Source: Lama guanicoe | Lineage: Eukaryota | DNA: 64,000 nucleotides | Assembly (NCBI GenBank): GCA_013239625.1 | Contig: MU056960.1 | Span: 1,802,544 to 1,866,543 of the forward strand | Direction of reading: 5' to 3' | Part shown: positions 16,498-62,552 of the stretch, piece by piece | Position numbering within the stretch: the first letter of the stretch is position 1 | Layout: each line of letters begins with the position of its first letter | Notes under the pieces: model-generated | Databases searched by the model: none | What the model was told of the DNA's origin: nothing | What the model saw: the letters and a program-made list of their open reading frames with translations, nothing else | Position numbers and translations under genes: made by a program

Positions 16498-16730
16498 AAT
16501 AAAACCTATCCGCCCATGCTTTACAACATTTTAAATTTGTAATATTTATGTACAGTCATTTATGGTACACATTGATTGTCTCGAAATGTCTTTTAACGGT
16601 TTTTTTTTTAATAAGTATGCAACAGTCAGCCAGGCGAGGATAAAGGTACATTAGAAAACACACATTAATACATTTAATAAATATATATTATCTATCAAAA
16701 ACGAGCCTTAGCTCTTTATCAATTAATAAA
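16498..16730 (+). terminator. Cluster of plus-strand AATAAA signals, candidate IQCK poly(A) signals
   Basis: AATAAA at 16498-16503, 16676-16681 and 16725-16730, with a further pair at 17392-17402. Confidence 0.55.
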
Positions 16731-18103
16731 AAGCACCTGCTGAGAACTCCTGTAAGCTGGTATAATCATTGCGTCATTCGATTATAAAAGCCACAATGCT
16801 CCCTTTCGGTTTGGGGTTCAGCTCAGCCTTGCCTCGCCAGGAAGGTCACCACACATGGCCCATGTTCAGCGGGCCCTGACGGAGTCTGTGCTAGAAGAAT
16901 AGACCCCCGCCTTCAACAGCCAGGTCTGCGCCCCTTGAGACACGTGGAACTTCCCAGGTTGTCAGTTCCCGGAGCTGATTCCCTCACTCCCTCCCCTCCA
17001 TCTCCAGGGCAGAAAGCCCGGACACGGTGACCGTTTTCCATTAAAGGGGGGACAAGAGTGGCTGTTATAGTCCCAAGGTGATTTTGAAAACCAGACCCGG
17101 AAGGACTCATGCTGACAATTAGGTGTTTAGATCACAGACACTCTCCTTCCAGGTCATTTGCCCCCAACGTCTCATTCACATAAACCGCTCTTAAACAGAG
17201 GTGCCACTTAGTTTTGTATTTAAACTTTGCTCCACGGGGGCAGCTGGCTGCCACAGTCTCTTGGCAAAGGTGTCTCTTTGTACCCTTCAGGTGAAGTCAT
17301 TAGAGAAATAACAGTTCTCTGCCTCCTCCCTCACTCCCCGCCTCCACCCGCACTGGGAGAGCATTCAGCCCACTCTTGACCTTAAAGCCAAAATAAAATA
17401 AAAACCAGAAGCGCAAAAACTATCAGAGATTTAAAAAGAGAAGGGGGAAAAAAAAGGTATCATTAAGTGAGATTTCCCGTGGCTCAGAGCTGGCTCCACG
17501 TTTATAGTAGTGAAACGTGACTTTCCACTTGCAGCCATGTGTGTCCTGCTCACCTGATGCGCTCGGACCACCAAGAACTTTGAGAGAAAAACGGTCATGT
17601 GAGTTCTCCCCTCTGCAAGGGGGCGCTCCTGCAGCCCGAGTCACTGCTGGGATCAGAGAGCTCCGAAGGACTCCAGGGAGCGGGGGCAAGCGGCCACTTC
17701 CTGGCACGAGAATGTGTAACGCGGCCGTTTCTCACCGGGCTGGACCGAGGTGTTTGGAGATTTCTGTCATTTTCAGAAGTCTGGGTCTGCATGCATCCGC
17801 CCCCACCCCCACCCCACCCCACCNNNNNNNNNNGGTGTGCGGTCCCCCCAGGGGTGCTGCTGGCACAGAGGACTGGAATCTGACCCTCTAGAAAGAAGCA
17901 AGCACATGCTCTGGGCGGTGGGCGCTTCCCGAAGCTCGGGTAGGGGCGGCCTTCTGGTGACACACGGAAATGCCTGACTTGACGGAGGGCCACACAGGGA
18001 AGGCCAGATTGGCCTCATTCCCCAGGTGCCCTGCAAGGACTGGAGGGCGGGGGAGGGCGAGGACGGGACACAGCAGACTAGGGCCTCGAGAAAAATCAGA
18101 AGG

Positions 18104-18109: not shown

Positions 18110-19379
18110 AAAACATACTCAGCTGAAACATGTTGGCTTACGAAGAGGTCAGTTCCCCCCAAACACTAACCTTTTTCATTTCCTTTAAAGGTTAAAGGCT
18201 TATGGGTTGTTTTATAGAAAAAAGCGATACAGTGATTAGAGTATATTCAAAACGCCCACCCTCGTGTATACATTCCATGCCGTCAGGTTAAAACTCTTTG
18301 CTTTGAATCGTGACTAGCGATTATGCTGGCCAAACAGTGCAGAGACCATGGGGCTTTGAATGGCCGAGATGTTCGAAATGCCAAATAAAGGAATGACTTA
18401 CTTAGGACAGATGGAAACCATGACAGAAACAATGAGCTTTGAAGAGAACCATTTTCATGGGCCTTGTAGGAAACCAAGACAAAACTGTCCCACGCACCCT
18501 CCAAAAGCAGCAAGGAAACCCTCACGTGCTCGGCCCACCCTGGACCTTTCACTACATCTGCATAGAAGACCCAAAAACTCACTGCATGCCAGGCAGCAGG
18601 TGTCACCTCTCCAGCCGGGGCACCCCTGGGATGCCCCGCCACGTGACAGCATCGTGGAAAGTTGGCTGTGGCCTCTGCCTCCTGGCCACACCAGGGCGCC
18701 TTGAGCTGGTGGCCTCGTCTGAGCTTTTGAAACGAAGGTGGGAACAGAACCGGGGAAGGACTTGGAGGAACACTGATGAGGGCTGGAAGAGGCGGAGGTG
18801 AGCGGGGGAGATACGGCTGCCCCAGCCAGCAACGGCAAGGGCTGCACCAGGGAGGGAGGCGGGCTTGCTTCCTGCCACTGGCGCCGGAGCAGGGGGCCCA
18901 AGAAGGAACAGCGGCCAGGCACCACTCTCTAAGTGCGATGGTCCCTTTAACTCCCAGACAGCCTTTTCTTTGGCACACGCCAGGCTCCCTCCACCACTCC
19001 TGCCTGTAAAGCTCTCTCCTCAGTTCAGCTGGTCCTCAGTCTTGGAACCACACCCGCAATCTCCTCAACTGCGCCTGACCCCCCTGAAATGTGAAAACCA
19101 ACAGGCAGGCTGGTGGAAAAGCCCCCATTCGTCCTCTTCAGGGAAACGGTTACCCCCAAGAGGCCACCCCAAGAGGGGTCCAGCACTTGCCGGGGAGGGA
19201 CGACGACGTAGGGGCGTTCCATGTTCAGCCCACACCAGCCTGTCCCACTGGCTGTGAACTTGGTTCTTTTCTGCCCCCAGAGGATGAAACAGTCTTCCCA
19301 GCCACATTCTCGAGTGAGCCTAATCCTATTTGCAATTAGCTTTGCTTTAGTTTGCAGGGTTTGAGGTTGGTTTGGTATT

Positions 19380-19381
<2 letters not shown>

Positions 19382-19411
<30 letters not shown>

Positions 19412-19420
19412 ACGTGTGTG
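19382..19420. repeat. (GT)~14 microsatellite in the GPRC5B 3' UTR, (CA)n on the mRNA
   Basis: Read directly from the sequence. Confidence 0.95.
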
Positions 19421-19623
19421 GCAGGGGAGGGAGGGCAGTCGGTGTTAGCATTTCAGTTCAGCAGTGTTCACATTTACACGGAACCCTCTTGTCTAGGATT
19501 TCCAAATCTCCCGGCTGCGAGGCGGCCTCTTTCAGCTACTGTTACTGATTTCTCCCTCAAGAAAGACACGGCCAGGGAATAAAATCGGTAAGAGATTCTT
19601 ATTCTCTGGAACTTAAAAGTCTT

Positions 19624-19668
19624 TCACCAGAGGTGTCTTCCAGTGTAACTTGGCGGAGCAGTTGGGAT
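19624..19668 (-). CDS. GPRC5B: GPRC5B terminal exon, coding part: IPTAPPSYTGRHLW*
   Basis: Acceptor tcctgtttccAG at 19670-19669, then ATC CCA ACT GCT CCG CCA AGT TAC ACT GGA AGA CAC CTC TGG TGA. Matches the known GPRC5B C-terminus ...TGRHLW. Confidence 0.96.
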   Translation of the reverse strand: MPTAPPSYTGRHLW

Positions 19669-20965
19669 CTGGAAACAGGAATAACACACTAAGAACTCTG
19701 GGCTTTGCAAAGTCAATGTCAGAAACCAACTCGTTAACAACGTACCGAAGATAAGTTACCTTGCCTTTTCCTGACGGGCTGAATAATTCCCCAGTAAAGC
19801 AGGAACCACTGTGTGTTACGATGCTCCGTTCTTGGGAAGGCCCTGTCCCCTTCTGTGTAATCATGCATCCTGAACAAATGTTTCCTCACCCAGAACCCCA
19901 CCTCGCTTTCTAAGTCCAGGATGTTTTTATGCACACTGGCCTCGACAGGACCAGATAGGGCTTACGAGTGACCAAAGGGCTGTCTTCTAACTGTATGTAT
20001 TATAACACAGGCCAAATGCTTGCAACTCAGGATTTTCTTGGCCCCCCAAAATAAACAGGCCAATCGATGGCTGGGGGTCTTCACAAATGCAATCTGTGTC
20101 TACTTGCTTTTGAGCCCCTTCCAAACCAGTGCAAACCAACGCTTCGCATACCATCCAAAGGCCAGGAAAACCCAAGTTCCCTCTAGAGATCAAAGACCAT
20201 CCCTGACATTAAGAAAAAAAAAAAAGCTCAGGTTGAGTTATGGAATTGGCACATGATAGAAAGAATGGAAATCCAATTTACACAGTGTAAACTGGCTCAC
20301 GTGTTGTTTCTGAAAGAAGCATGGAGCTATGTTTGGAAATTCAATGTGGGAATGACAGTGCATCTTTGGACTGCTGGAGAAACAAAATGATGTAATTCCA
20401 CGGAGGCAAAATGCAAATGATGACAATTCTGCTGAAGGTCTGTTTGGCATCATACAGTAAACCTGTTTGGTGTTTGCCACAGAAAAATGATAATCACTTC
20501 AATTTCTTAAGAAATCTTTTAAGGAAGGGAACCTGGGACCCGGCTGGAGTACAGATGGGGGTGGGGGGAGCAGGGGCGGGGACTCAGCTAGGTTGGATGT
20601 CAGCAAAATCTGTCAGGGTTTCATAACTCTGGGCTTTTCCTAAGAGTCACCTCTCAGGCAGAGGGAGGATGGGGGCACCTTCTGTATAATGGAAACCAGA
20701 GAATTCTCTGGCTGAGAGCCTCTAGAAACAGGGACTCTTTCAAACGAATCTACAGATGGTCAACTAAGTATAAGTGGAGGTTCCATGCATGGAGAAAGGG
20801 GGCAGAGAAGAAGAAAGAGAAAAGGAAGCATTGCATGCATGAACGGGTGCCCCCTTGAGCCGCTGTCCTTGCAGACTCCACAGAGCAGGGTGTCCCCGTC
20901 GAAGCTGCCCCCCAACACGGACCACTCCTCGGCTTCCTGCCAAAGCATCACCTCCTGATACTTAC

Positions 20966-28729: not shown

Positions 28730-29735
28730 CTGCGTTGTGTTCGTCCATCGAGAAGGCCTTGTTCTCCATGTAGGTCCGCGGCAGCTGCACGTCCTCCTCA
28801 AACGCCGTCTCCCGCATCCTCGGCTGCGACGTGTCGAAGTAGTTGGGCGTGTTTTCCTGCGGGGCCGGCAGAATGGTGCAGTGGATCTCGGGGATGGCGT
28901 GGAAGATGACGAAGACCCAGCCGCTGGCCACCAGCGTGATGGCCAAGGTGGGGTCGCCCCAGGCGTCTCCCTGCCGCAGCTCGGCGTTGCCGAAGAGGTA
29001 CATGGTCATCCAGGCCACCCAGATGAGCACGGAGAGGAAGGCGGTGACCAGGATGCAGGCCCCGTTCTGCTTCCACTTCTTAAACTTGCCACACAGCGTG
29101 AAGAGGGCCAGCCCCAGGGTGGCCACGAGCAGTACCATGTCGTAGATGAGGGCCATGACGAAGTCCATGGGCTCGTAGGCGCAGGCAGGCTTCGAGTCGC
29201 GCAGCACGGTCAGCACCAGCCACTCGATGGCGATGATGACCTGCACCAGCATCAGGCACAGGGCCACGCCCACCAGCTGCCAGCCCGACGGGCTCTTGCC
29301 GTGGCGCACCAGCCTCCGCACACGCCACGCCTGGCTCAGCAGGCAGGAGAAGCAGAGCGCGAACAGGACGCCCCAGAGGAACCGGCGGACCGAGCAGATA
29401 GTCTCGTCCTCCCGGATGATGAAGGCGAATGTCAGCCCGAAGAGGCCCAGGGTCCCCAGGAGGAAGAGGAAGTGGAGGCCCACGGGGTCCTTCTTCTCCT
29501 TGTCCTTGATGAATGGCAGCCGCACCAGGAGGATGAGCATCAGGAGCAGCGTTATCAGGGCGCCTGCCCCGGCCACCGCCTCCACCACGATGCCCCAGAT
29601 GGTGTCCAGGTCGCACAGGGACACGTACTGAGGAAGGAGGTCTAGCCCGCAGCCCCGGGATGTGCTGGCGTTCTCAGAGGCCCCGGAGGCGATCACGAAG
29701 AGCAGGAGGAAGGCGAGCACTTGGTGGGTTCTCAT
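28730..29735 (-). CDS. GPRC5B: GPRC5B main coding exon (exon 2): signal peptide, 7TM class C (RAIG family) orphan GPCR core and start of the C-tail
   Basis: ORF 28644..29792(-) encodes MRTHQVLAFLLLFVIASGASENASTSRGCGLDLLPQYVSLCDLD...WGIVVEAVAGAG...ENKAFSMDEHNA, which I recognise as GPRC5B. Donor GCAG|GTAGAG has GT at 28729-28728 (phase 1). Start placed at ATG 29735-29733 (AAG ATG A) because the first AG after the pyrimidine tract is at 29745-29744. An alternative in-frame ATG lies at 29753. Confidence 0.97.
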
Positions 29736-30834
29736 CTTTCTCTCTGACACCATGAACGTTCCAGACAAGTTGAGGAGGAAAGACCAATGCATTGTAAGAC
29801 GCTCACTCTCCTGACTTTAAGAAGACCCACCTCACTTCAAACCTGCTTGCCTCTGTTGTGCCTTTGGACACAGAGGACAAGGTGCCCCTTTCTCCAGGCA
29901 GCACAGCCCGTCTCGGGGTGGGGGGTGGGGAGTGGGGTTTCGGGTCCCATCTGCACAGTGAACAACCACGAATCACCACCGCTAGTGGCTGGAGGAGCGG
30001 GTGGGAGGGACACTCACTTTCTCTGAATATCTTTTCATATTTTTTGAATTTGAGGCCATGTCAGACCTCTTCAAAAATAAGGGAATAAAATGAAACTTTA
30101 AAGCGACAGTTAGGGGCCAAGCGCTGAGCTGGGCATGCGTTAACCCGTTTCAGTCCCTCAGCGGTAACAGCTGACATGCACCGATGACTCACTCTGGGCC
30201 CCGCACTTGACATTTCCAGTCCTCACACCGGTGACAAAACAGTCTTGAGGAGGTTGGGACACTTGCCCAAGGTCACAGCACTCAGCTCCTAGGAGCTCTC
30301 GGAAGTCTCCCAGCATTTTAAATGTAGTATGAACCGTCTCCCTGGGACCCACCCTTTCCCCATCCCCTCACACATCCCACCCTCCTCCTCCAAAGATCTC
30401 CCAAGAATCCCTTGTCTCACGCCACTCCAGCCCGTCTCTCCGGGGGGCGCTTGCAGGATGCTCCTCGCCTCTCCCCGCCCCCGTGCAAGGCGGGGTCCAC
30501 ACAGCTGCCAGGAGACCGGCTTATTAACCCGAGTGAGTTTCCTCTTGCCCCTCCTGCTCCTTCTGCTAACCAGAGCCCCCCCTCCCCTCAACCCCTGCTT
30601 TTATGGAAAACCACTCCTCCCCACCCCCAGTGGTCTCAGATCTAATGTCATCCACTCAGACCTTGGCCAAGGTCACACCCGCGTCCTCTCTACCAGGCCT
30701 CTCGTCTGTTTCCTCCCGCTAATCCTATCTCATCTTTTTGCCTGTTTACTTTGTTTCTCTGTCCCTTCCTGTCTCTCTCCATCACTAACTGCAGGAGGAC
30801 AGGGACACTGTCCACCTTGTTCATCAGCATAAAC

Positions 30835-38479: not shown

Positions 38480-39260
38480 CCGCCCCCCACCCCGCCCTCT
38501 GCGGCGCCTCTCTCGCTGCACTGTGGTTCCCCTCATTAGGATACCCCAGCTGCCCCAGCAGACTAACCTCTCGCGGGGGGGGGAGCGCTTAGAAAAGCAC
38601 AAGCAGCAGACCCCCCAAGCCTCCCAAGTCCGCGGCGGGAAAAGTTTCTGGGGCCCCCCTGCAGCGCCCTCCACCCCACCAGCGCGGCTCGCACTCACCG
38701 ACCCCCGCGGCCCCGCAGCGCCGACGCTCCCGCTGGCCCTCGGCCCGAGTCACATCTCTGCAGCGCCGCCGTGGCCCCAGCCCCGCGCGCGCCCGCCCGC
38801 CCGCCAGCCGGTCCGGCCTCTCTGCATCTCACTCGCCAGCCGCTGCCGCGCGAGGCGCCCCCTGGCCGGGCGCGCGCTGCTGCAGCCGCCGCGGCCCCGC
38901 CCCTCCAGCCGGCCCCGCCCTCGGGGCTCCCGAGCCCCGCCCCCGGCCCGGCCCGAGCGGGGCTGTCTATTCCTTGCCGAACCCCAGGCCGGATACTCGC
39001 TACTCGCCGGGGGCCCTGAGAAGGGCCCCCTCCAATGTCCCCAATTCGGGAACACTATCCCCACACCCACAGTGCGCCCATAAACAGTTCGGACGCGCCG
39101 GACACAATCTCAGTTTGCTCCACTTTCAGGAGGACACGGACGAGATTTCCTCCGCCCAGGACGCTCTGCATCATGAGCCCCCAAATAGTAACTTCTCCAC
39201 AACATACCAGCACCAGGTCCAGGGCGCAGAGAGGATTCCACCCCGCGCGTTCCAAAGTCA
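38480..39260. promoter_or_regulatory. GPRC5B: CpG island / GC-box promoter of GPRC5B
   Basis: Very GC- and CpG-rich stretch with three CCCCGCCC (Sp/KLF) boxes in 38895-38945 and no clear minus-strand TATA box. Confidence 0.85.
38699..38870 (-). other. GPRC5B: GPRC5B non-coding first exon (5' end approximate)
   Basis: Strong donor CGG|GTGAGT (GT at 38698-38697) at the edge of a CpG island and just downstream of clustered GC boxes. The TSS cannot be placed exactly from sequence. Confidence 0.75.
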
Positions 39261-40981
39261 CCAATGCTCCAATGTACTACCAGGCAGACCCTTCCCTCCT
39301 GGGCACACTCCAAATCCCACCGCCCCCCACCCGCAACGTGTCCCTGTCACTTTACACACACTGAGCCCAACATCCGCAACCTTGCCACCCCATCATACTC
39401 CCGTGTTGACGTCCACATTTTTGCACCCATCACATGGGTCCATATGCAGGATGCCACCACTGCTGCTGCACACATCATCCACGTACGTACACGTCCACAA
39501 TTTACCGGCGCACACACTCGGAGGTCCTGGGCCATCGGCCTGGCGCTCCGCAAACGCTCAGGGCACAGGCAGGACTCGTGTCCACGGTGGCAGCTGCGAG
39601 ATCCGCTTGAAGGAAGGGGTTCGGGGCCACTTCCACCCCATCCTTGTCCTACACACGGCAGGGTGATGACCCCTGTTCCCCTCTTCCCTGCTTGCGGGAA
39701 GGAGGATGGGGCGGCAGGAAGGTGGGTTGCAGAGTAATACTGCTTCCTGTGGATAGTTGCAGGCCCTGATCTTTGGTGCCCACGGACCTTTCAGATACTC
39801 TCACCCCTTCCTGCATTCCCAGTTCCCTCGTGCCCAGCCAAGACCGGCTACATACCCTGTGGGCACACATCTCTCCAAATGCCTTCTCTTAATTCTAACG
39901 AAAAATGGAAGGAAAGAACCACAAAAACAAACAAAAAAAATTTCCAGTTTCATTGGCCAACGTATCCTCAGCGCCTCGAACAGTGCCTGGCAGTCAGTAG
40001 GAGATCTTAAAGGGTTTGTGAGACAACCTGTCAGTGTTCTAGTTAGATTAGGGAATTGGAAGATGGATGAGCACTGCCTCCTGGTGGTACCTAGTGGAAC
40101 TGACGCCGATATCCTTTTCTTTCCCTCTGTAACGTGGGCAAATTCACCTTTCTAAGCCTCAATTTCCTCAAAGGCAAAAAGGAGATAATTTTAGTAGTAC
40201 ATGCCTACTGGGGTTGTTGTGAAGATTAAAGACATAATACATGTAAAGGGCTTCACACAGAGTCCTGCCCGTGGAAAGCGGTTAGTGTTAATTGATTAAT
40301 ATTACAGTTACAGTTATATTCCTTTTTCTTGGCTTATTTTACAGAGGGACCCTGACTGTGATGATCAGTTTAGCTTCGGGAAGCAAGGAGTGAAAATGAA
40401 GGAGGCTACTGAGTGGCAGGTGCCTTCCTCTCCCGAAATTCAAGGACCCAAGGACTCATCATCACAATCGTGAGAACTTGGGCAGTGTTCACTGTGTGTC
40501 AGGCGCTGTTCTCAGGGCTTCAGAGTATTTCATTCCCCCAGCAGCTCTCTAGGCCAGATACTGTTATTCACTCCATGTTCCAGATGGAGACACTGAGGCC
40601 CAGCGGGGTTAAGTACCCACCCACAGTCACAGAGTTGACAGAGCTAGGATCCAACCCAGGCCATTTCTCTCAACCAGCGGCTAAACCAGTGTCATTTGCT
40701 CTAGAGTCAGAAATCATCACAGGCAAGCCTCATGTCCCCGGAGGGCTCCCCAGGTCTCCAGCCCTGGAGGGAACAGCTCTAGGAGGTGCCGGGAGCTGCA
40801 TCAGGCTCTCAAATGCTCAGTCCGCTTCAAGCTAATGAAAAGTAGAGGCTTCTCCAGCTCTATTCCTCATCTGAAAAATGGTGAGAGTGCTGCCCGTGGC
40901 TTTTCCACTGACAAATGTCAGGGAGTATAATTAGGTGTTTGTGCGGCTCTACTTTTTACTGTCTCCCCAGCTAGACTGTCT

Positions 40982-60190: not shown

Positions 60191-62552
60191 GCATCTCCTG
60201 TGCTCCTTTTTGGGGCAGATTATCTCACCCCTCTGAGCCTCAGTCTCCTCCTCTGTCAAATGGGGATCATTAGAGTGCCAGGCTCACTGGGTTATGGTGA
60301 TGGTGGAAGAAAATACTGGAGGCCCCACAGCACCATCCCTGGCCCCATGCCAAGCACTTAATAAATGTTAGTTATTATTAGTATTTACCAACATATTTAC
60401 TTATTTATGAAAGGAATGCAGCCCCCAAACATACATAACCCTCACCGGGAAGAGGAATAATAAAAATAGGCTTAGAAAATCGATGAGGATATAAGTGGCG
60501 CTGGTTCCTGGAGTGTAAGTGTGGGTTTTATTAAAATTCAGTGTAGTAAGCATTTCTGCAGCAGGGCTGAGCTGATTCACTCTTACAGCCTGAGCAAAAG
60601 AGAGACCTTTTGGGGCTCTAATCAGGCACCCGGGGGTCTGTTAGCTCCCCAAGGTGGCACTTCCCATCCTGGCATCCTCATTTCTAGTTTGCCATTGAGG
60701 TAGGTAATCTGAAGACTGGCTAGATCTGTGGTTGGCTGGCACGGCGGGGAAGGAGTTAAGAAAGAAGCTGGAAGAAATTCTGATGAGCTGTCTACTGTCC
60801 CTGGCAGTAGTCGCAGTAGGAACAGTTACCATGTCTGAGCACTAATTATGCGCCAGGTGATTGGGCAGAGGCTGGGGATACAACCTGGACTGTTGACTGT
60901 CACAATTACATGAGTCCTTTTGGTCTAGGATGTAATCAGTAAATAATAACGTGTACTAAATACACGTTAGGTGCTGTGCTAACTTCCTCACATGAATCCT
61001 CTCTTTTAATCCACGTAATAGATCTAGAGGTTGTTTCCATATAATTATTGCTTTATAGGAAAGGAAACAGAAGCTCAGACAAGTTAAAAGACTTACCCAA
61101 GGGCTCTCAGTGGGTAAGAAGGGAATTAAGAATTTGGTCGTGGGTCTGTTTGGCTCCAAGGCTTTGCCCAGACTCAAAGGCAGGCACCTGGGTTAGCTGA
61201 TGTGCATAACGGAGCTGGGTCCTTCTTCTCCTGGATCCTCACCTCCTCCCCTTCAGTGGGCTCTGGCCACCCCAGCCTCCTTTCCGTTCTGAGAACACCT
61301 CCTTCTCTTCTTGGAGCCTTTGTACTTGCTGTTTCCTCTACCTGGAACCTGCTCCCCGACAGCTCCTTCACTTAATTAACTCCTGTTATTCCTGAGTCCA
61401 TAGTAGAGGTTACTCATTGCCTCTCAAAACAACTCTGGGGAGCACCTTAGAGACTACATTTCCCAACCTCTCTTAGAGAATGGTATGTTCATTTGATCAA
61501 CTTCTGGCCAATGAAATAGAAATGGAGTGTTCTGTAAGGCTCCTTACAAAGGTGGGGGCGCATTTCCTTATTTTTCTATTGTCCTTGCAATGTCCTGTTG
61601 TCTGTGATGCAGATATGGTGGCTGGAGCTCTAGCAACCATTTTGGACCATGAGGTAAACTTGAGAATGAAAGCATATGCTAAGGAATGTGAAACAGAAGA
61701 ACCCAAAGAGGCTGGGCTCCTGATTAACTGGTGGAACTGTCAAATTAGTCCTGGGCTGATTCTGGCTTCTCATGGAATGAGAGTATATGGGCATATGGAG
61801 AGTGCCACTGGGTGTAGTTAGACAGGTTGTGCACTGCACAAACCCAGGGACACCAGTTAAATAACAGTCTATGTGAATACACGTCCTGAAATTGTAGTGC
61901 CTGTCCTGTGTGACTGTTCATGGCAGCCCCGTCTACAAGGTAAGGAGGGACCTTGACCATGAGTTTATTCAGTGAACTCCTGGTGCTTACCAGGATGTCT
62001 GGACCATTGTCAGTTCTCTGAACAAATATTGGTTGCAGGATGAAAAAAAAGATGGATGTCTTGAGCTGGGTACTGAGGGCACCCAGAGTTGGGCAAGGCA
62101 TGGAAATGGTAGCAAGAAGGCGTGGTCAGGGCTTTAATCCAGGGAAAAGCGAGGGATGCTGGGGCTCAGAGGGAGGTGGCCGCCTGCCTGGGGGAGCTGG
62201 AAGCTCTGTGGACTGAGGAGGCCCTTCTCTTACCTGGTCTCAGATTTCCATCTGCAAAATGAGATTACGGCAGAAAAGTGGTTTTGTTTGACCTTAAATT
62301 TCATTTTATTTTATATCTTGATTTGTTTTAAGTAGGCAATGCTTATAGTACAAAAAAAGGCATAGGAAGAAAAGTAAATTTCTTTTCACTTCTAATTCCC
62401 AGAACCTGCTCCCCTACACACCCTCTGCACCACCTCTGTACTCACCTACCCACGGAAAAACCCACTGGTTACCACTATAACCAGTATTTTAAAAAGGGAA
62501 TAAATTTGTTTTATTTCATGAAGGCACTTTAAAACAGGCAGGTCTATGAAGT

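Follow-up and report, generated by a model that had tools for sequence, protein, structure and literature searches.

A conserved PTAPPSY motif in the cytosolic tail of GPRC5B: a candidate LITAF-type sorting signal with a single Tyr-to-His change in Euarchontoglires

The GPRC5B gene in the guanaco window

The window, a stretch of 64,000 nucleotides from Lama guanicoe, carries the coding exons of GPRC5B on its minus strand. The large coding exon (exon 2; 29753-28730, minus) encodes the signal peptide, the 7TM domain and the start of the cytosolic tail: Pfam places 7tm_3 at residues 47-288 (E 3e-38), a homolog search returned named GPRC5B proteins at 95-98% identity, and the exon 2 part agrees with dog GPRC5B at 331 of 333 residues. 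The methionine of the common 387-aa form lies at 29735, with a further in-frame methionine upstream at 29753, and the exon's donor reads GTAGAG. Exon 3 (21078-20966, minus) encodes the middle of the cytosolic tail, in frame and with GT-AG boundaries, and the terminal exon 4, entered through a canonical acceptor (pyrimidine tract and CAG), has a coding part at 19668-19624 (minus) that supplies a v1-type tail end of 14 residues and a stop. Joined by GT-AG, exons 2, 3 and 4 form a 393-codon frame with no internal stops. Exons 3 and 4 each match the genome once, which argues against a second copy or a pseudogene.

The gene has the class C 7TM domain, short N-terminus, ENKAFSMDE tail motif and one large plus two small coding exons expected of GPRC5B, defining features such as the short N-terminus and ENKAFSMDE being those given in PMC3238225. 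It is an ordinary ortholog, its last 14 residues as in dog, cattle, marsupials and birds. The solved structures found are of GPRC5D and of mGluR/GABA-B relatives only, with none of GPRC5B and none reaching the tail end. A CpG island at 38501-39500 (observed/expected 0.69-0.89), lying about 9 kb 5' of the large exon, is probably the GPRC5B promoter and first exon, and a CA-type dinucleotide repeat lies in the 3' UTR at about 19420-19381, roughly 200 bases past the exon 4 stop.

The PTAPPSY heptamer at the end of the tail

The coding part of exon 4 (19668-19624, minus) translates as IPTAPPSYTGRHLW followed by a stop. Its heptamer PTAPPSY (19665-19645, minus) combines P[T/S]AP at 19665-19654 with an overlapping PPxY at 19656-19645, the tyrosine being encoded by TAC at 19647-19645, just as an earlier note on this DNA had read it. 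The first half matches the TSG101 UEV consensus P-[T/S]-A-P, and PPSY matches the P-P-x-Y consensus of ligands for WW domains of the NEDD4 family. The heptamer spans residues 381-387 of 393, and 7tm_3 ends at residue 288, so that it lies outside the folded domain and, because of GPCR topology, on the cytosolic side of the membrane. The Tyr-type tail offers a single lysine, K332, as a possible ubiquitin acceptor.

Across the six frames of the window P[T/S]APPxY occurs twice, where 200 local Markov simulations gave 0.005 on average. The second copy, PSAPPLY at 62421-62441 on the plus strand, sits in a short stop-bounded frame with no exon signs and is taken as chance; given such a non-coding copy in the same window, the motif alone proves little, and it is conservation that carries the case. 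In 20 of the 24 read runs listed, at least half of the sampled words of 19000-19800 were present, a measure of the region rather than of the TAC codon at base level. A complex prediction that paired a WW domain of this genome (P0484, Pfam WW), from a protein that we take to be NEDD4L-like, with a dog ortholog peptide made up of its final 35 residues scored 0.05 in each of two runs, a value that, with no alignment used and no controls folded, counts neither for nor against binding.

Conservation and a single Tyr-to-His change

Orthologs were gathered through homolog searches, cluster look-ups and a representative search, which together yielded 176 rows with an exon-4-like end; removal of the paralog P0315 left 175 GPRC5B-type tails. 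The rows include isoforms and close kin, their clade labels were assigned from species names, and the named rows are without tree shrew, xenarthran or jawless fish. Within the heptamer P1, T/S, A and P4 are each kept in 175 of 175 tails and P5 in 174, and P[T/S]AP is accordingly present in every tail. The x position is S in 130, T in 33, N in 11 and P in one, and position 7 is Tyr in 95 and His in 80; PPxY is kept in 94 of the 95 Tyr rows (x = S, T or N) and in none of the 80 His rows. Variation within the motif sits at T/S and at x, positions at which the two consensus motifs leave room for it.

The two states at position 7 follow phylogeny closely. Tyr is found in all 86 named rows outside Euarchontoglires, from sharks to manatee (4 cartilaginous fishes, 28 ray-finned fishes, 1 coelacanth, 3 amphibians, 23 sauropsids, 1 monotreme, 7 marsupials, 1 afrotherian and 18 laurasiatherians). 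The 73 named Euarchontoglires rows, which cover primates, colugos, rodents and lagomorphs, all have His; the 16 rows with no species name divide into 9 Tyr and 7 His. The pairing of PTAPPSH with an upstream RPSAPFRS that the earlier note had given for human and mouse was found in human P0149 and Mus pahari P0190. On a tree built from the 7TM part only, with 37 of the 44 intended rows (7 were left out), the Tyr/His character takes one change, with support of 100/100, and none of 500 shuffles was as low. A mouse primer published in PMC2859937 shows CAC for the His, and CAC is one transition away from TAC.

The distribution argues that P[T/S]APPxY with Tyr is the ancestral state of jawed vertebrates, and that His is derived, having been fixed once in Euarchontoglires with PTAP kept. 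By the same comparison PTAPPSY is a common ancestral state and not special to this genome; with Tyr ancestral, the window holds the ancestral form, and the notable event is the single loss in the human-mouse ancestor. A gain of PPxY in this lineage can be rejected, since Tyr is ancestral and His derived, as can an assembly error at TAC, since the codon gives the ancestral residue found in 86 of 86 named rows outside Euarchontoglires. The alignment of vertebrate tails and mapping on a tree that the earlier note had called for thus gave one change, from Tyr to His; its idea that docking was rewired between lineages stands in that the H/Y state differs between them, and falls in that the present lineage is not the unusual one.

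In a 121-row alignment nine columns separate Euarchontoglires from other placentals, and among these only the Tyr/His column shows no variation within any group on either side (Tyr 70/70, His 51/51). The last 33 residues (361-393), including NVYQPTEM, LNGG and a terminal G-R-x-x-W, are nearly as invariant as the heptamer in this alignment, so conservation does not single the motif out. Among 65 representatives inspected (P0315-P0379) of 150 listed, the heptamer was seen only in GPRC5B-type tails; the paralog-type ones, which by our reading of their tails appear to be GPRC5A/C/D-like, do not end in it, and one representative reads PTAPVNY.

Further changes were observed in the same clade. The exon 3 linker, which corresponds to window 21078-21035 (minus), is 21-22 residues long in 51 of 53 other tetrapod rows; in all 73 named Euarchontoglires rows it spans 30-76 residues with SGSLGK[R/K]P-type repeats and, in 72 of the 73, at least one lysine. 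This expansion shares its clade with Y>H and supplies further potential sites for ubiquitin; each being a single event, the two give no evidence of co-evolution. The Euarchontoglires stem of the 7TM tree measures 0.093, against 0-0.03 for the end branches of dog, sea lion, rhino, cattle and dolphin, with dog and the window at length 0, and several fixed Euarchontoglires changes cluster at window residues 226-233, approximately intracellular loop 3 by hydropathy. The long stem and this cluster may point to a broader change in function.

An upstream P[S/T]AP site altered in this assembly

Exon 3 carries a second, upstream site at 21034-21023 (minus), whose codons CCC AGC GCG CTA read PSAL within RPSALFRS, the leucine being CTA, in agreement with the earlier reading. 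The site is P[S/T]AP in 227 of 253 exon-3 rows and one of several other variants in 26; PSAL itself appears in none of the 253 rows and in none of 23 short exon-3 fragments. Its fourth proline is kept in all 95 tetrapod and coelacanth rows, the leucine is the only window residue after position 35 unseen in those rows, and among orthologs the Pro>Leu change is confined to the window gene. The window's exon 2 read-through protein was absent from the protein collection searched. From these comparisons PSAL is a private, read-unverified substitution in exon 3, separate from the PTAPPSY and Tyr/His matter; a fixed substitution, a private allele and an error of the assembly would each account for it, and we put the chances that it is real or not fixed at about even.

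In the 175 rows where both sites are represented, 76 of the 95 with Tyr and all 80 with His retain P[S/T]AP upstream. The losses (19 of 95 against 0 of 80) lean to Tyr lineages, yet Tyr rows cover more branches and the Chinese hamster has lost the site too (SIVP, in two rows with other tails), so that a reciprocal trade between the two sites is unsupported; the exchange of PSAP for PPxY that the earlier note proposed is at odds with the 76 Tyr rows that keep both.

Cellular and viral proteins with the same arrangement

A Pfam search of this genome returned LITAF-domain exons, and a PTAPPSY exon lies 2.8 kb upstream of a zf-LITAF exon on the same strand (L008:6981; G000:C3491:2469380). LITAF and GPRC5B encode this identical peptide with different synonymous codons at at least four of the seven positions (five of seven counted). 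LITAF in this genome has PTAPPSY and a second PPAY, and a gene on G000:C6107 (L003/L009), presumably CDIP1-like, has PPPY followed by a separate PTAP.

PPSY 20-23 of LITAF binds NEDD4 WW domains in pull-down and NMR experiments and overlaps a P(S/T)AP (PMC5142333, PMC5095921), LITAF is reported to bind TSG101 (PMC5095921), and the motif residues in SIMPLE are P17, P20 and Y23 (PMC3667717). A PTAP mutant of SIMPLE was secreted less by the exosome route and a mutant of both PPxY tyrosines more, with PTAP dominant (PMC3667717). The spacing of this module, P1, P4 and Y7 with two shared prolines, is that of the GPRC5B heptamer. The closest match to the GPRC5B motif is the cellular LITAF/SIMPLE and not a viral protein: the heptamer is identical, and LITAF/SIMPLE, like GPRC5B, is a membrane protein sorted to intraluminal vesicles and exosomes. 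LITAF/SIMPLE is nonetheless a zf-LITAF protein unrelated to the 7tm_3 of GPRC5B, and a domain search of the window exon and of the complete dog ortholog gave 7tm_3 alone, with no zf-LITAF-like domain (PF10601), which limits the likeness to the motif. The LITAF motif is N-terminal and accompanied by a second PPxY, whereas that of GPRC5B lies six residues from the C-terminus and is accompanied by an upstream P[S/T]AP; GPRC5B has lost the tyrosine in Euarchontoglires and can splice the motif out; and binding, which is shown for LITAF, is for GPRC5B a prediction.

The Ebola VP40 motif PTAPPEY has the PTAP/PPxY overlap and spacing of GPRC5B (PMC6357148), as the earlier note had observed. VP40, however, is a viral matrix protein in which the motif is N-terminal and both halves serve budding, whereas the motif of GPRC5B is old among vertebrates and belongs to a receptor of the host, and the two show no sign of shared origin. 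Viral late domains are located in viral structural proteins, and GPRC5B is not one; a viral origin was rejected, since GPRC5B is a single-copy, intron-containing host gene conserved across jawed vertebrates. With the same heptamer in LITAF, the arrangement is not virus-like in any special sense, so that of the virus-like dual signal first proposed there remains a conserved, overlapping P[T/S]AP and PPxY in a cytosolic tail. ARRDC1 differs in being a soluble arrestin-domain adaptor, and its PSAP and PPxY are separate rather than overlapping. It resembles GPRC5B as a host protein with PSAP and PPxY, which engages TSG101 and WWP2 in microvesicle budding (as cited in PMC3667717).

GPRC5B traffic and possible roles of the heptamer

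GPRC5B is an exosome cargo (PMC5638587), as the earlier note had it. In canine MDCK cells it reaches intraluminal vesicles and exosomes (PMC5638587, PMC4611857; the species of the tagged construct is not stated in the parts of these papers covered), and it is enriched in mouse astrocyte vesicles (PMC13496119), so that vesicle release is reported both for a cell line of a Tyr lineage and for a protein of a His lineage. Reported regulators of its exosome traffic are LMAN2, sirtuins and syntaxin 3; the receptor also recruits Src-family kinases (PMC6197706) and has the leukodystrophy proteins GlialCAM and MLC1 as partners (PMC5638587, PMC8369841, PMC13496119). The literature searched, in the parts covered, names neither TSG101 nor a NEDD4 ligase as a GPRC5B partner. 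Nor does it link the motif to GPRC5B, give binding or mutational results for it there, or describe a tail sorting signal; Kwon 2014, Kwon 2016, Shirk 2005 and supplements stand outside that search and may bear on novelty. In the portions covered, the family-evolution study PMC3238225 names other conserved motifs and not PTAPPSY, PMC8369841 has the mouse tail peptide solely as the antigen for an antibody, and PMC6934595, PMC12775950 and PMC6197706 hold no motif data; 'ubiquitin' and 'lysosom' have no occurrences in PMC12775950. The motif is real, deeply conserved and of a known class, and in GPRC5B apparently undescribed.

We consider it moderately likely that the heptamer acts as a two-way sorting switch between TSG101-mediated export and NEDD4-family turnover. 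PTAP would bind TSG101 of ESCRT-I and carry the receptor into intraluminal vesicles and exosomes, and WW domains of the NEDD4 family would bind the overlapping PPSY, with ubiquitination and turnover as the outcome; because two prolines are shared, we propose that the two partners compete. By analogy with SIMPLE, PPxY would restrain rather than help exosome release, and the change to His would abolish WW binding, so that Euarchontoglires would lose the ligase half and keep ESCRT docking. Binding of GPRC5B to TSG101 and to WW domains, partner competition, restraint by PPxY and the loss of WW binding through His are steps that we infer from LITAF and from the established motif consensus. The invariant core, the restriction of variation to consensus-free positions, the identical LITAF heptamer and the entry of GPRC5B into exosomes support the switch. 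Weighing against it, the vesicle enrichment of His-type mouse GPRC5B (PMC13496119) indicates that PPxY is not required for sorting, the invariance of His in 80 of 80 His rows is not what pure loss of function would predict, K332 is the sole lysine of the Tyr-type tail, the whole of the last 33 residues is nearly as invariant as the motif, the published exosome regulators are other proteins, and a non-coding copy of the heptamer occurs in the window.

Some of these same observations would fit a tail end that forms a longer surface for another partner, such as an SH3/SH2 adaptor, a kinase or GlialCAM/MLC1, with the PTAP/PPxY match incidental and the Tyr perhaps a phosphosite: residues 361-393 are as conserved as the heptamer, His is fixed throughout the His rows, and Src-family kinases are recruited by the receptor (PMC6197706). 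Substitutions within the heptamer are, however, found at T/S and x, where the two motifs leave room for them. The upstream NVYQP tyrosine, which we take to be the Fyn site of GPRC5B, lies outside the heptamer and is invariant in 121 of 121 rows. The unrelated LITAF also uses the same heptamer for NEDD4 binding (PMC5142333). We hold this other-partner explanation to be quite unlikely. Less probable still is that PTAP alone functions, in TSG101-dependent sorting, with PPxY weak or unused and Y>H tolerated in a burst of substitutions on the Euarchontoglires stem. The long 7TM stem (0.093), the other fixed differences and the exon 3 repeat insertion would suit such a burst, His forms are still exosome cargo (PMC13496119) and PTAP dominated PPxY in SIMPLE (PMC3667717), but across the 86 other named rows the tyrosine is constant and its neighbours, x and +1, are variable.

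The original proposal, a virus-like dual budding signal with release driven by both halves and with lineages trading the upstream PSAP against PPxY, is in our view very improbable. It accounts for the VP40-type spacing (PMC6357148) and for the upstream losses being in Tyr rows (19 of 95, against 0 of 80 His rows); those rows span far more branches, however, 76 of them keep both sites, a rodent, the Chinese hamster, has lost the upstream site (SIVP), and PSAL is restricted to this assembly. That both halves drive budding is unsupported in view of SIMPLE, in which loss of the PPxY tyrosines raised secretion and the PPxY half thus opposed it (PMC3667717), and of the vesicle enrichment of the His-type mouse receptor (PMC13496119).

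Returning to the two-way switch, GPRC5B is a much-used exosome cargo for which the motif offers a candidate tail sorting signal; as the motif class is known from LITAF and the form seen here is the common ancestral one, the gain lies in an annotation open to testing and not in a new system. In its fullest version, which we regard as unlikely though worth stating, GPRC5B would be a GPCR with a built-in LITAF-type NEDD4/TSG101 switch, whose NEDD4 brake was removed by one Tyr>His change in the primate-rodent ancestor. If this were true, GPRC5B of human and mouse would have greater stability, or be exported more readily, than its counterparts in dog, cattle, birds and fish, and results obtained in canine MDCK cells, in fish and with human constructs could not be interchanged.

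An alternative tail that lacks the heptamer

A v2-type alternative terminal coding segment lies at 17700-17653 (minus), 1968 bases downstream of the exon 4 acceptor, and reads EVAACPRSLESFGAL followed by a stop. It matches the alternative tails of mouse, vole and gundi by tblastn, its acceptor at 17700 is CAG in phase 0, and tails of this type were found in 24 marsupial and placental rows. In mouse, v1 has a 14-residue end, and Gprc5b_v2 skips about 2 kb of exon 4 to take a 15-residue end instead; v2 is brain-enriched in mouse and also present in human cortex (PMC2859937). The same paper proposes a PDZ ligand for v2, the word 'motif' being absent from its text (PMC2859937). The v1/v2 tails of the window gene are as in mouse (PMC2859937), and v2 would by this resemblance be expected to be used in Lama guanicoe as well.

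Use of the v2-type acceptor removes PTAPPSY entirely. The v2 form would thereby lose both PTAP and PPSY, and, should the switch exist, the brain-enriched splice form would drop it altogether. The motif can be tested with two point mutants, a natural Tyr/His lineage pair and a natural v2 deletion.

Two further matches lie downstream of exon 4. At 16593-16552 (minus), 12 of 14 residues match an annotated alternative tail of the marsupial Dromiciops; polyadenylation hexamers stand nearby at 16678, 16612 and 16472, and conservation within the 3' UTR, not coding, is the probable basis of the match. Alternative tails predicted in desman and Chinese hamster match the stretch at 18424-18317 (minus), which has an in-frame stop in the window; these matches are likely gene-model artefacts or lineage-limited acceptors.
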